From NCBI GenBank assembly GCA_001791305.1, contig MGEI01000005.1, positions 210,698 to 274,697 on the forward strand: a DNA stretch of 64,000 nucleotides. Reading direction: 5' to 3'. Below, piece by piece: positions 37,310 to 62,408 of the stretch. Both the position numbers and the translations under genes were made by a program. The notes below the pieces were generated by a model that was given only the letters and a program-made list of their open reading frames with translations, had not been told where the DNA came from and did no database searches. Position 1 is the first letter of the stretch, and the number at the start of each line of letters is the position of its first letter. This DNA comes from Candidatus Uhrbacteria bacterium RIFCSPLOWO2_01_FULL_47_17 (GTDB lineage Bacteria; Patescibacteriota; Patescibacteriia; UBA9934; GWF2-40-263).

Positions 37310-38827
37310 TTAATCGTGCTGCATCTTTTGTCCGCGAAACTGCAGCGCTTCGGCAAGATGTTGTTCTTCAATGATGTTTGACTCCGCAAGGTCGGCAATG
37401 GTGCGTGCGACTTTGCGGATACGTGTTGTGGCGCGAGGAGAAAGTGATTGTGATCCGATCGCAAGACCTAACAGGGTTTTTGCTTCACTCGACATCACGC
37501 AGGTTTTTTCAAGGAGTGAAGGCGAAATTTCAGCGTTCACATGACAAGCGGAATCGAAAAATCGATCCGCTTGTTTTATTCTTGCGGCAACAACGCGTGC
37601 GCGAATGATTGCTGATGGCTCTGATTGAGTGTCCGATAACAATTTTTCCTGCGGCAGATTAGAGACTTCAATGCGCAAATCAAATCGATCAAGGAGCGGC
37701 CCGGAAATGCGTTTTTGATACGTTTGCATTTGAAATATAGTGCAAATACATTTTCGTTTGGGGTCACTCGCGTATCCGCACGGGCATGGATTCATCGCGG
37801 CAACCAAAATAAATCGTGCAGGAAATTTCACCGTCGCCTGTGCGCGAGAAATGGTCACGACACCGTCTTCAAGTGGACCGCGCAAATGTTCCAGAACATG
37901 ACGAGGAAATTCTGGGAGTTCATCCAGAAATAAAACACCACGATGCGCAAGAGATATTTCGCCTGGTGTTGGCCACGTTCCCCCACCCACAAGCGAGACG
38001 ACAGAAGCAGAATGATGGGGAGAACGAAACGGACGCGTTTCAATGAGACCAGATGAGGATGTCAGTTCACCCGCAACAGACGCGATGCTTGTGACTTCCA
38101 TAGATTCTTCTTCGGTGAGATCTGGAAGAATAGAGGGAAAGGAACGGGCAAGAAGCGTCTTCCCCGTTCCTGGTGGACCCGAAAGCAAAATATTGTGCCC
38201 ACCCGCAGCAGCGATTTCCAGTCCGCGTTTCGCAAAGTCTTGTCCTTTTATAAAGGAGAAACACTGATGATCTTCTCTCGCTCGTATTTTTCGGGCGTAC
38301 ACCGTTTTCGTCATGAGTGTGCGTCCAAGCAAATGATCAACAAGTCCACGCAATGATGTTGCACCGAACACTTCGAGATCTTTTATCACAGCGGCCTCTT
38401 GTTCATTTTCTTTTGGAACGAACATGGACGTTTTTTGAATGCGTCGAGCCATCAGTGCGGTTGTAAGAACTCCACGAACCGGTCGAATGACTCCATCGAG
38501 CGCAAGTTCACCGAGCACAACAGCATGTTCAAGCGTGTGGGCTGGAATTTCGCCGCGCGCAATTAAAATTGAAAGGGCAATTGGTAGATCATAGAGCGGG
38601 CCTTGTTTGCGTAAATCTGCCGGAGCAAGATTGATGGTTAATCGTCCGCGAGGAAATTGAAAACCACTATTTTTAATGGCAGCGCGAATGCGATCCCGAG
38701 ATTCTTTTACGGAAGTATCAGGCAATCCCACAATCGTAAAATTATTCATGCCGTTTGAAACGTCTGTTTCAACAATAACAGGAATAGCATCGATTCCCGT
38801 TGTTGTGCTTGAAATGATAGAAAACAT
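37310..38827 (-). CDS. comM: ComM / YifB Mg-chelatase-like AAA+ ATPase
   Basis: IVGLPD, INLAPADLRK, GPPGTGKT, PFRSPHH, MNPCPCG. Confidence 0.93.
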   Translation of the reverse strand: MFSIISSTTTGIDAIPVIVETDVSNGMNNFTIVGLPDTSVKESRDRIRAAIKNSGFQFPRGRLTINLAPADLRKQGPLYDLPIALSILIARGEIPAHTLEHAVVLGELALDGVIRPVRGVLTTALMARRIQKTSMFVPKENEQEAAVIKDLEVFGATSLRGLVDHLLGRTLMTKTVYARKIRAREDHQCFSFIKGQDFAKRGLEIAAAGGHNILLSGPPGTGKTLLARSFPSILPDLTEEESMEVTSIASVAGELTSSSGLIETRPFRSPHHSASVVSLVGGGTWPTPGEISLAHRGVLFLDELPEFPRHVLEHLRGPLEDGVVTISRAQATVKFPARFILVAAMNPCPCGYASDPKRKCICTIFQMQTYQKRISGPLLDRFDLRIEVSNLPQEKLLSDTQSEPSAIIRARVVAARIKQADRFFDSACHVNAEISPSLLEKTCVMSSEAKTLLGLAIGSQSLSPRATTRIRKVARTIADLAESNIIEEQHLAEALQFRGQKMQHD

Positions 38828-38838
38828 AAATTGATGAT

Positions 38839-38917
38839 AAAAAAAGAACTCCCAAGAAATTAATCTAAGGAGTTCATTTATAGAAAAGAGTTTATCGAAC
38901 TTTTTTGTGTTTGTCAA
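38839..38917 (-). promoter_or_regulatory. Promoter plus leader terminator (attenuator-like) directly before comM
   Basis: TTGACA-17-TAAACT, then GAACTCC..GGGAGTTC-T7 ending 11 nt before ATG. Confidence 0.65.
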
Positions 38918-45575: not shown

Positions 45576-46787
45576 ATGCTATCGATTGATAATCGTCCTT
45601 CGTTTTCTCATACGCACAGATTTTCTTTTGGACACGCGGCTGCGCTTCCAACACTCGCCCTCAATCGGCTCCTTGCGTACGCTGCCTCAAGCATTATCGG
45701 ATTGTTCCTTCCGATTTTTTTGTTCGATTTTTTTCATCGATCATTTCAAGCTGTTCTCTTATTTTATCTTGTTGATCAACTCTTAAAGTTGCCGTTCTAT
45801 GTTCCTGGTGCAAAGATTTTTTCAAAGATTGGTTTGAAAAAAAGTATGATGATTGGTGTGCTTGGATTGTCTGTTTTTTATTTCATGTTTTTTCTTCTGG
45901 GACAAAACACTCCGGTTTCTCCTTTTATCTTGATGGGTATTGGGCTTGTGGCGCTTATGTTTACAAGCACGCTTTACTGGTCCCCATTTCACATTGATTT
46001 TGCGGAATTCTCCTCAAAAGAAAAACGCGGGCGTCAGATTAGTGCTCTTTTTGTGCTTCAACACATTATTGGAGTGATCGGTCCGATTGTCTCTGGAGCG
46101 TTGATTGTTTTGTATGGTTATTCCGCAACGTTCGCCCTCGGGTTTTTTCTGGTTCTGTGTTCCCTTCTCCCGCTTTATTTTCTTCCCGCCAAATCTGTGC
46201 AATATGAATTCGGGTATTGGCAAAGTTTTCGCGAATTATTCTCCAAACGGTTTCGGCCCATGTCGATTTCTATGATGGCATTTGGAGCAGAAAATACCAT
46301 TGGAATTCTTGTATGGCCCATTTTTCTCTACATGCTTTTTGAGGGTGATTATTTGAACATTGGATTTTTCTCCGCGTTTATCATTATCACAACACTTCTC
46401 TTTCAGATTTTTATTGGAAAAGAAACAGACAAGGTTTCCGCAAAACGGATGCTTCATATCGGAACAGGATTGTATGCGCTTGGATGGGTTTGGAAAGGGC
46501 TTGTGCAAACCGTGACGGGAGTATTCGCCGCCTCAACATTTCACAGCTTTGGCTCCATTTTTCTGCAGACCCCCATGGACGCACTGACGTATGAGCAGGC
46601 AGCGGATGCAGGACATTACATTGATGAATACACCGTATTGCGTGAGATGTCATTAAATATTGGTCGCATTTTTATTATAATTTTCCTCTTGGTTTTAAAC
46701 ATTTATCTCCCAATCACCGTTTCATTCTTTGTTGCAGCAGCAATCTCTCTCGTGATTAATCGCCTCGCGGATACGGTTCGAACTTAG
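45576..46787 (+). CDS. MFS transporter
   Basis: About 12 TM helices, KRGRQ, GPIVSG, LREMSLNIGR. Confidence 0.85.
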   Translation: MLSIDNRPSFSHTHRFSFGHAAALPTLALNRLLAYAASSIIGLFLPIFLFDFFHRSFQAVLLFYLVDQLLKLPFYVPGAKIFSKIGLKKSMMIGVLGLSVFYFMFFLLGQNTPVSPFILMGIGLVALMFTSTLYWSPFHIDFAEFSSKEKRGRQISALFVLQHIIGVIGPIVSGALIVLYGYSATFALGFFLVLCSLLPLYFLPAKSVQYEFGYWQSFRELFSKRFRPMSISMMAFGAENTIGILVWPIFLYMLFEGDYLNIGFFSAFIIITTLLFQIFIGKETDKVSAKRMLHIGTGLYALGWVWKGLVQTVTGVFAASTFHSFGSIFLQTPMDALTYEQAADAGHYIDEYTVLREMSLNIGRIFIIIFLLVLNIYLPITVSFFVAAAISLVINRLADTVRT

Positions 46788-60478: not shown

Positions 60479-60542
60479 CCATCAGGCGGTTTTTTGTTAA
60501 GGTTTTCGCTCGATCAATAGTTGATCGAGCGCGGAGGAACAC

Positions 60543-60755
60543 ATGAGAACAGCTGTGATCATTGTCGCTCTTTGGATCTTATCTTTTTGTGGAATGTGGG
60601 CATCAAGTTTGATCTCACCCTCCGCGATGGTCATTGCTGTGATGGTCTTATCAACCATTCTTGGTTTCCTCGGATGTGCTCTCGGAGCTGTATGTGGAAC
60701 ACGTGCCGTACTTCGGTGGTACGAACGTGATTTGAAACCAGGCAATCATGAATAG
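60543..60755 (+). CDS. Small two-TM membrane protein
   Basis: GGAGG SD, two hydrophobic helices. Confidence 0.55.
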   Translation: MRTAVIIVALWILSFCGMWASSLISPSAMVIAVMVLSTILGFLGCALGAVCGTRAVLRWYERDLKPGNHE

Positions 60756-60764
60756 GAGGAACAC

Positions 60765-61139
60765 ATGAGTCGATTGTTCATTTCACTTGGAGCTATCATC
60801 GTGCTTGCCGCATGCGGTACCGATGCGGCAAAAATGGCTACAGAAAATCCATCGAATATTCTTCAGGCGTTTGCCTTGCTTGTTGGAACACTCACATTTC
60901 TGCTTTGTCTCATAGGTGAACAGGATTTGTGGCCCAATGCTATTTTGAATGCGACCAAGTATTCGGGGTTCATTTGTGTCGTGGTTGGTCCACTTTTTTA
61001 CATCTCGACACAGAAAATCGAACTCGCGCTCGCGATTTCTCTCTCAGGAGGTCTCATTCTCAGTGGTCTGCACCTCTTCTTCAAAAAAGAATTCCAACAG
61101 ATGACGAGGGTTGAGACTCAACGAGAAGAAGAGGAATAA
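60765..61139 (+). CDS. Hypothetical membrane protein
   Basis: GGAGG SD, LAAC, several TM helices. Confidence 0.55.
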   Translation: MSRLFISLGAIIVLAACGTDAAKMATENPSNILQAFALLVGTLTFLLCLIGEQDLWPNAILNATKYSGFICVVVGPLFYISTQKIELALAISLSGGLILSGLHLFFKKEFQQMTRVETQREEEE

Positions 61140-61167: not shown

Positions 61168-61713
61168 TTATTTTGATGGACACGCTCCCCACAATCCACG
61201 TTTATTTTTCTTTGCTATTTTTTGCACCGCTCGAAATTCTTTCTGATATTGGTACGGAATTTTGTAGGTGTATTCACGCGCAAAACCGTTTTGAATGAGG
61301 GTTTTATTTATATTCATCTCTTCGAGAAATACAAAACGCAACAGACGATCATATCTGTCTCGATTATCTTGAGATGGATCCGACTCAAGTTTCACAATGC
61401 GATCGATCATGAGATTTTTTGCATATGCAGACGCTTCCGGACCAAAACATTGTACGGGTCGATTCGGTGCGACTGTCTCGGGAGTGTTAACGCCGAGTAA
61501 TCGAACCGTTTCTGGTTTATGATTAAGCGCGACGATGATGGTGTCACCATCAACAACACGAATCACCTGAGACTCGATTGCTATTTTGGCCTTCTGTTTG
61601 TCGAGTGTGTGCTGATCTGTAGAGTTATGATAAAACCACAGTGAAGCGATGCTGATGATGATCGAAATGGAGTAAAAAAATAGTTTTGTGAAGTATTTTG
61701 ATTTGACAGACAT
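61168..61713 (-). CDS. Thermonuclease (SNase) family, membrane-anchored
   Basis: RVVDGDTI, VRLLGVNTPE, DRYDRLLR, GLWG. Confidence 0.9.
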   Translation of the reverse strand: MSVKSKYFTKLFFYSISIIISIASLWFYHNSTDQHTLDKQKAKIAIESQVIRVVDGDTIIVALNHKPETVRLLGVNTPETVAPNRPVQCFGPEASAYAKNLMIDRIVKLESDPSQDNRDRYDRLLRFVFLEEMNINKTLIQNGFAREYTYKIPYQYQKEFRAVQKIAKKNKRGLWGACPSK

Positions 61714-61737
61714 AGGATTTGATGTTAGAGTTTATTT

Positions 61738-61876
61738 ACATTTGATCATGTAGTCGAAGTGATCCCCGAGGAATCGCCCTAAAAATGATTCCGTTTTGAT
61801 ACGAAAGTGGGTTTTGTGTCATTTATTTGGCCGTTTGGCTCCCGAGGAACTCTCAATGTGAGAGTTCCGTTTTTTT
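61738..61876 (+). ncRNA. Candidate small RNA convergent with PemK-like gene
   Basis: TTGACA(61703)-17-TAGAGT promoter; repeated CCCGAGGAA..TTCCGTTTT units; terminator GGAACTCTCA-ATG-TGAGAGTTCC-G-T7. Confidence 0.55.
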
Positions 61877-62256
61877 ATCAAGGCGATAATTTTTTCTTCA
61901 ATCTGTTTAAATTCCTCCTCAGAAATTTTCCGTATCAATCGCTGGAGACGTTTTGAACTTATGAGGCGCAATTGTAATAGGAGGATAGAAAAAATTTTCC
62001 CTTGTTGAACATAGGGATGATACCAGTTTCCTGTTCTATTTTTTGAGGTCATTGGCAGGATCCAGGCAGTGTGGCGATTAAATTTTCTGAGAATGAGCAC
62101 GGGTCGTTCGAAGAGTGCGTTTTTTCCATCTTGTTCATACCCAATATTAAGACCAATCGAACACCACCAAACTTCGCGTTCATGAAAAAATGGAATTTGC
62201 ATGTTTAACAATTCAATTTTCTCTTTCAGAAGATTCCATTCATCAAAATTTTTCAT
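61819..62256 (-). CDS. PemK/MazF-family toxin-like protein, no adjacent protein antitoxin
   Basis: FDEWN, EREVWWCSIGLNIGYEQDGK, RPVLILRKFN, LPMTS, QLRLISSKRL. Confidence 0.8.
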   Translation of the reverse strand: MKNFDEWNLLKEKIELLNMQIPFFHEREVWWCSIGLNIGYEQDGKNALFERPVLILRKFNRHTAWILPMTSKNRTGNWYHPYVQQGKIFSILLLQLRLISSKRLQRLIRKISEEEFKQIEEKIIALIKKRNSHIESSSGAKRPNK

Positions 62257-62273
62257 ACGCAGAATGTTAAAAC

Positions 62274-62360
62274 AAAAAAAGAACTCCCAGATGAATTTGA
62301 TCATGTAGGAGTTCTAATTTCTTGTATCTCTATTTCATCAAAAAATTTTGTGATTGTCAA
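62274..62360 (-). promoter_or_regulatory. Promoter plus leader terminator before PemK-like gene
   Basis: TTGACA (62360-62355)-17-TGAAAT, hairpin GAACTCC..GGGAGTTC (62314-62281) then T7. Confidence 0.65.
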
Positions 62361-62408
62361 TGGTGGGTTGTGGAAAAATAAATCCGAGCTATGAGGCTCG
62401 GATTTTAT

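Follow-up and report, generated by a model that had tools for sequence, protein, structure and literature searches.

A PemK/MazF-fold gene family of Patescibacteria faced by a conserved convergent two-hairpin RNA unit, a candidate RNA antitoxin

A widespread CPR/Patescibacteria family of MazF-type genes is faced by a conserved two-hairpin unit with its own promoter, and one such locus lies in the window, the whole 64,000-nucleotide stretch of Candidatus Uhrbacteria DNA analysed here. The gene, the fold, the strict association between gene and unit, the fixed geometry and the compensatory changes in hairpin 1 of the unit were directly observed. Judging from these sequence features, we propose that a small RNA from the convergent unit may bind the protein and so neutralise the predicted RNase, a reading to which we assign a probability of roughly 0.45, and it is probable that the RNA is an antitoxin of one kind or the other, acting by binding or as an antisense. 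The original prediction for the solo MazF-fold gene and its convergent small RNA was a possible RNA antitoxin or RNA-guided antitermination; the first part was supported and extended to the whole family, whereas the second was not, no relative having the complementarity.

The pemK/mazF-fold gene is located at 61819..62256 on the − strand (145 aa, ATG at 62256). An alternative 161-aa frame from 62304 crosses the leader hairpin described below, and the starts of the relatives fall at the MKNF/MKDF position. The product matched PemK in Pfam (PF02452; E 9e-11, 42.4 bits vs a cut-off of 23.1) as its sole family above cut-off, and PF02452 was matched nowhere else in the genome. An AlphaFold model built from a 120-row alignment (pLDDT 78.6) was similar to B. 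subtilis MazF (4mdx; Z 14.6, rmsd 2.5, 105 residues aligned) and, in Foldseek, to S. aureus MazF (4mzp; E 1.7e-6). Among the matches listed, the structural neighbours of the model were MazF/Kid, and ToxN was absent from the 50 structural matches listed. A PDB sequence search returned MazF matches only, all weak, and neither the PADLOC models nor NCBIfam gave a match. R51 was kept in 120/120 sequences of the alignment, position 70 was S in 74 and T in 46 (S/T in 120/120), and the E-Q/D-G..R-P motif aligned with YdcE. We take R51 and S/T70 to be catalytic, in line with MazF chemistry and as placed by the YdcE alignment. The window gene is a MazF-fold PemK with the predicted catalytic Arg invariant, and the family protein would presumably be an active ssRNA endonuclease. 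Residues 1–18, including an extra N-terminal helix, fall outside the MazF-aligned core; K2, F4, W7 and K11, all beyond that core, are near-invariant in the family, in which the basic residues R97, K102, R103, R106, R109 and K110 are also conserved.

The observation that no protein antitoxin stands beside pemK was borne out, the adjoining genes being rpsT, whose terminator hairpin (62380..62405, − strand) forms the upstream boundary of the locus, and a staphylococcal-nuclease-like (SNase) gene (61168..61713, − strand; PF00565, E 5e-24), which in the relatives compared occupies the site both with and without pemK. The genome has two MazE/AbrB-type matches, each ahead of another ORF that by eye is a PIN or RelE toxin; C5:521405-522042 and C5:403070-403558 look like ordinary type II pairs, AbrB-type with PIN and AbrB-type with RelE-like (by eye). 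Upstream of the 115 family genes with enough upstream DNA, there was no adjoining same-strand ORF in 47 cases, a long ORF in 32 and a small ORF in 36, and antitoxin Pfam families were found in 0/36 of the small upstream ORFs, the set that the domain scan covered. A protein antitoxin may be encoded in trans. Elsewhere in the window, the same 15-nt ribosome-binding/start stretch occurs at 60533-60547 and 60755-60769, in each case ahead of a small membrane-type ORF; both ORFs lie in the interval from holA to SNase. At the pemK site of genome G002, 3' of rpsT (locus L088), there is an unrelated 183-aa ORF, four-helix-bundle-like by eye, which opens with MKNFD like pemK, suggesting a gene replacement that kept the start. 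Runs X1 and X3, possibly the source of this DNA itself, each have the locus of the window assembled identically in a single contig.

The protein search yielded 941 relatives among 971 candidates, and the genome scan yielded 131 loci, of which the best 80 of 131, mostly from Patescibacteria, were kept. The family profile matched in 51 of the 401 sampled genomes of the phylum, with up to six matches per genome, and in 27 of the 162 genomes of the order. TAnnnT ending 5–9 nt before the ATG was present in 57/130 family genes vs 5–24 in eight other intervals, an SD-like motif in 7/130 and a leader terminator in 11/130. The family genes appear from these signals to be mostly leaderless, and TAACAT at 62264..62269 (− strand), 7 nt before the ATG, is a candidate −10 for a leaderless pemK mRNA in the window. 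Direct repeats of 28–123 nt, 82–98% identical, bracket the whole gene–RNA cassette in seven loci (L009, L011, L020, L027, L068, L069 and L077), suggesting cassette insertion with duplication of host sequence, and on this ground the cassette is considered to move.

Nearly everywhere, the unit lies on the strand opposite pemK at the gene's 3' flank and opens with a TTGACA-type/TATAAT-type promoter and a gap of approximately 6 nt. The part that follows, roughly 45–90 nt long, comprises an A-rich lead with the consensus AYAAAY, hairpin 1, whose commonest form is GGC-UUCG-GCC, a short linker, the GC-rich hairpin 2 and finally a U tract. A convergent promoter was found in 64/75 loci, compared to 15/75 on the same strand and 8/71 in an interval shifted further downstream, the 75 loci being the 80 plus the window minus six with a missing stop, odd length or short flank. 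Among 41 held-out genes, taken from 40 regions that we chose among 93 listed places (20 from five multi-copy genomes and 20 from different genomes), the convergent promoter was present in 38 vs 5, and in the order set in 21/28 vs 6; over two sets, the −35/−10 pair stood at a fixed distance in 102 of 116 genes. When metagenomes were searched in reverse, with promoter and motif, at least 119 loci were obtained, of which five were too short and 114 usable. A PemK ORF is faced in 99 of these 114, and a six-frame search added 10 more (109/114); by eye, the other five comprise three without pemK, one with an internally deleted gene and one with a C-terminal piece. The promoter is intact in the units without a nearby pemK (L153, L158 and L182) and in the unit beside the internally deleted pemK (L175).

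Hairpin 1 was paired in 98.7% of 232 cells, with double changes in two of its four pairs, and its pairing exceeded all shuffles, a test inflated by related sequences, as well as all slid controls. In the held-out RNAs, it occurred at the fixed offset in 33/38, in 30 different sequences, vs 16 expected. Among the 92 RNAs with two hairpins (of 124 folded, nested structures only), GNRA/UUCG loops capped the second hairpin in 53 when the antisense strand was read, compared with 3 when its reverse complement was, and the antisense strand is therefore favoured as the RNA. An antisense terminator was called in 47/64 loci, with predicted RNA lengths of 43–60 nt (24), 66–90 nt (22) and 148 nt (1); the predicted RNA extends at least 14 nt into the ORF in 33 of these 47 loci and at most 5 nt in 14, and a sense-strand terminator was found in 22/64. 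A subclass (L015, L019, L023, L037, L051, L054 and similar loci) has a third hairpin over the pemK stop codon, which would end the longer 66–90-nt RNA. On the protein tree, a quick tree with 33/71 forks open, RNA subtype clustered across host phyla (16 changes vs 43 shuffled); this clustering shows gene and unit travelling together, not co-evolution, and is expected from linkage alone. In genome G327, paralogues carry different hairpin 1.

Searches of Rfam with the window region and 20 motif loci gave chance-level matches only, far below gathering scores. Our covariance model, R1, was weak, with a variable hairpin 2 and a poor alignment; it scored one window unit (unit 2, below) at 16 bits and missed the other (unit 1). 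Its match at 46242-46305 (+ strand; 18.5 bits), with a UUCG hairpin, is probably due to chance, and chance was also taken to explain 24 matches in viral contigs to a promoterless short pattern, none of which faced a pemK ORF. No description of the module was found in the literature searched, mainly non-subscription papers, and the cassette of MazF and convergent small RNA is apparently undescribed.

In the window, the promoter and terminator claimed for the + strand are both present, with TTGACA at 61703, a 17-nt spacer and TAGAGT at 61731, and the terminator at 61846-61876. This sigma-70-type promoter of the predicted convergent RNA (61703..61731, + strand) has its −35 within SNase codons 2–4 and is orthologous in G007; the −35 is missing here, by eye, in G002 and G005, which lack pemK. 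The repeat was likewise as described, with CCCGAGGAA at 61765 and 61841 and TTCCGTTTT at 61789 and 61865, spaced 76 nt each. RNA unit 1 (61738..61797, + strand) comprises a 6-nt lead, a long hairpin 1 (61744-61764) at the family's usual offset, CCCGA, hairpin 2 (61770-61792) and a weak U4, and its fold by itself gave a z of only −1.3; it is a long-hairpin-1 variant of the family unit, similar to L280, L345, L348 and L354, and is absent from G007. The following spacer hairpin (61798..61820, + strand; −9.3 kcal/mol on the + and −0.3 on the − strand) is possibly the decayed promoter of unit 2, the spacer carrying TTGATA at 61796 without a properly spaced −10. RNA unit 2 (61823..61876, + strand), inside the last pemK codons, is a canonical family unit with hairpin 1 at 61829-61840, CCCGA, the terminator hairpin at 61846-61868 and U7 (z −4.7); it aligns with the family, and its orthologue is the only unit present in G007, the stems of the two differing by compensatory changes. 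In the window, this cognate-type unit is without a promoter of its own. The 138-nt stretch folds equally significantly on both strands (z −3.0 and −3.4).

The rpsT–leader–pemK–SNase order is orthologous in G007, which is of the same genus (identities 89%, 59% and 66%), and the window has approximately 84 bases more, consisting of unit 1 and the spacer hairpin. Stacked units of different subtypes, each with its own promoter, were seen at L007, L012, L043, L205 and L281, and stacked units under apparently one promoter at L326 and L347; these loci were picked by eye rather than by a systematic count. Unit duplication is occasional stacking and not the family design, and the repeat in the window is not a family trait because most loci have one unit.

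We propose the following course of events for control by binding. The convergent unit would be transcribed as a 45–90-nt RNA, of which the A-rich 5' lead and hairpin 1 may dock on PemK, perhaps at the extra N-terminal helix and the basic patch. The bound RNA would hold the predicted RNase, and a loss of RNA synthesis through stress, phage or cassette loss would free it. In this genome, a second unit of a different subtype is stacked ahead of the cognate-type unit under one promoter, so that a 60-nt RNA and a 139-nt read-through RNA are predicted. Binding is favoured over antisense control because the conservation of sequence and geometry across phyla is not needed for cis pairing, because the RNA is without complementarity to the mostly leaderless 5' end, because the overlap with the ORF is at most 5 nt in 14/47 loci, because the protein has a family-specific conserved surface, and because hairpin 1 differs between the G327 paralogues and RNA subtype clusters on the protein tree. 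Furthermore, ToxN provides a precedent of a MazF/Kid-like protein inhibited by RNA, as described in PMC3401426. However, the linkage noted above can account for the subtype clustering, the antisense terminator was called in only 47/64 loci, and the window's cognate-type unit is promoterless; in addition, the convergent geometry matches antisense systems and not type III loci.

The same geometry favours a type I-like mechanism, in which the RNA would pair with the 3' end or 3' UTR of the pemK mRNA and lead to its cleavage by RNase III, or convergent transcription would lower the mRNA. Long duplexes are possible, since the ORF overlap reaches at least 14 nt in 33/47 loci and a sense terminator is found in only 22/64, and an RNase III gene is present in the genome. 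We nevertheless consider antisense control rather unlikely, since the conserved lead, the UUCG/GNRA-capped hairpins and the fixed geometry are superfluous for cis pairing, these features leave about 6 free nucleotides for it, the ORF overlap is so short in the 14 loci mentioned, and distal stacked units have promoters of their own (L007, L012, L043, L205 and L281).

The RNA could also be a cofactor, trigger or preferred substrate of an RNP, such as an RNase set off by phage or a regulator of domesticated origin, which the strict one-to-one association, the fixed structure, the family-specific N-terminal helix and the occurrence of up to six family matches per genome would fit; solo MazF can be domesticated, as PMC4803016 describes for M. 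xanthus. We hold such a role to be improbable, since units persist without pemK (L153, L158 and L182) or by the deleted gene (L175), which is antitoxin-like behaviour, no variable guide segment matches anything nearby and the PADLOC models gave no match. A bolder form of control by binding, which we regard as equally speculative, is that hairpin 1 would be an exchangeable specificity module of new RNA-inhibited MazF RNPs, non-cognate units stacked in small arrays would confer immunity to other pemK alleles, and one stacked unit of the window would have captured leader sequence, its transcript serving both to silence the protein and to pair with the nascent leader.

This leader had been described as a promoter followed by an intrinsic terminator before the ATG, and both were confirmed: TTGACA at 62360-62355, 17 nt, TGAAAT at 62337-62332, and a hairpin at 62315-62280 followed by a U tract (hairpin fold z −7.0). 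It is a dispersed promoter–hairpin–U-tract element (62273..62360, − strand) that is not specific to pemK. Its −10 is without the consensus A at position 2, and a simple scan called neither the leader promoter nor the terminator; the promoter spacing is common to the copies of the element, and their consensus comprises a promoter with a non-consensus −10, a hairpin of AACTCC, a variable loop and GGAGTT, and a U tract. There are six copies in this genome, and the element occurs in 5/5 genomes searched in the genus and in 18/61 of the family; the reversed pattern gave 0 matches. It precedes comM, small coiled-coil-like ORFs, one long ORF, SNase and pemK, and stands directly before SNase in G005 and G006, both without pemK here. 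A paralogous copy (38847..38917, − strand) lies before a comM-like gene (37310-38827, named by eye), and other copies lie at C5:176658, C5:40076, C3:100239 and C3:112479 of this genome (G000). All four pemK genes found in the genus stand behind the element, which could be an attenuator or a 35–55-nt RNA family.

According to the original prediction, the first 14 nt of the small RNA recur at the leader terminator. The 14-nt stretch at 61740..61753 (+ strand) is indeed identical to 62295-62308 and occurs nowhere else in the genome; it starts at nt 3 of the predicted RNA, whose +1 is at approximately 61738, and 5 of its 14 nt belong to the usual lead, which unit 2 has as well. An exact repeat of at least 14 nt was obtained in 27/2000 Markov simulations of the region and in 40/1624 equal-sized genome tiles; the repeat is uncommon but not extraordinary, and its position is what stands out. 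Among the loci tested, the match is private to this genome. Covariation of the RNA 5' end with the leader loop was not detected in 121 loci (genome loci plus motif-selected metagenome loci, biased to the canonical 5' end; first 22 nt used), in which the longest match was 9 nt and the duplex energies were equal, at −13.6 kcal/mol for own and −13.9 kcal/mol for foreign leaders. Matches were at most 7 nt in the held-out set and at most 6 nt in the order set, and no match was visible by eye at six further pemK genes that follow a leader hairpin (two in G007, the orthologue among them, and one each in G006, G086, G087 and G088). The suggested extension to comM was likewise unsupported, as no partner longer than 8 nt was found within 2.5 kb downstream of the comM leader copy; for the other five leader copies, the best partners genome-wide were 11–13 nt, judged to be at chance level without a formal control.

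The original prediction had itself raised a target-site duplication as the source of the 14-mer, but this origin is contradicted because the empty sites in G005 and G006 retain the whole leader hairpin, followed by SNase. The right copy of the 14-mer, moreover, lies inside the RNA gene. At another site in G006, a leader copy has a loop almost identical to that of the window's leader, so that the latter is within the range of its own family, and unit 1 is therefore the likely recipient of any copying. The likeliest explanations of the 14-nt match are a scar of local copying and coincidence, not a mechanism of the family. A circuit in which pairing of the RNA 5' end to the nascent leader would alter the termination of pemK, perhaps also of comM, would draw on the exactness of the complementarity, on a computed net pairing of −11 to −14 kcal/mol on the nascent leader before the 3' arm emerges, and on hairpin 1 of unit 1, which has re-formed around the bases that match, possibly under selection. 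On the complete leader, however, the net value is −1.9 kcal/mol, a 7-bp basal stem survives pairing and cofolding retains both hairpins; furthermore, no other locus has the match, leader terminators precede only 11/130 family genes, the leader is present without pemK and the comM copy has no partner. We therefore judge this circuit very improbable, and antitermination could be no more than an additional layer confined to this genome.

Least probable of all is that the stretch serves only to structure the 3' end of the mRNA or to mark, as DNA, the end of a mobile cassette, the promoter being incidental, since the movement of the cassette (28–123-nt direct repeats, seven loci), a hairpin 2 that could terminate transcription both ways and the similar folding of the window's 138 nt on both strands are countered by the −35/−10 pair at its fixed distance (102/116) and by the orientation of the tetraloops (53 vs 3).

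If the RNA is an antitoxin, the module works like type III or type I systems, and it belongs neither to ToxIN/CptIN/TenpIN nor to type II MazEF. The window PemK shares its fold with the toxins of type II MazEF/PemIK (4mdx, 4mzp, E. coli MazF and Kid) but has approximately 20% identity to them and an extra N-terminal helix, and it is assigned outside type II MazEF because, instead of an adjacent protein antitoxin, of which none was found, it has a convergent RNA unit. In type III ToxIN/CptIN/TenpIN loci, as PMC3401426 describes them, the toxin gene is preceded on its own strand by tandem repeats and then a terminator, and the module is placed outside them because such upstream same-strand repeats are required there. 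In common with type III, the module has a MazF/Kid-like predicted RNase that a small structured RNA may keep in check, and the RNA unit is repeated in some loci; in contrast, the RNA unit here lies downstream on the other strand, has a promoter of its own and is usually single, it has two hairpins by nested folding, and the best structural matches listed for the protein are MazF. In AbiF/AbiFr, according to PMC12737573, one cis-encoded structured ncRNA inhibits an RNase by binding. AbiF, however, has the HEPN fold and not that of MazF, and binding is shown there but proposed here.

The convergent small RNA may, as in type I systems, be complementary to the 3' region of the toxin mRNA, and in B. 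subtilis txpA/RatA the toxin gene and the RNA likewise overlap convergently at the 3' end. Type I is defined by an antisense RNA against the toxin mRNA (PMC5367252, in its definition of the type). The type I toxin is a small hydrophobic peptide, whereas a MazF-fold protein is encoded here, and the sequence and geometry of the RNA are conserved across phyla. The pemK RNA motif of Rfam, which occurs in Firmicutes upstream of pemK, is likewise a structured RNA tied to pemK, but the module described here is on the other side and strand and has no Rfam match. The main text of PMC5737381 is without the term 'pemK'; its supplement may describe the Rfam motif and may bear on novelty.

Small-RNA antitoxins are among the explanations suggested for solo toxins in PMC2701414. 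Solo toxins are abundant, and the module represents a concrete, large and testable case of the suggested RNA antitoxin, with a MazF-type protein and a predicted RNA of roughly 50 nt in approximately one-eighth of the sampled Patescibacteria genomes. Should the RNA act by binding the protein, RNA inhibition would have arisen independently on the MazF scaffold, and the module would serve as a model of how type II systems pass into type III; should it act as an antisense, a toxin classically found in type II would here be part of a type I system. In both cases, the unit constitutes a predicted new ncRNA family, whose many natural cognate pairs lend themselves to tests of specificity.
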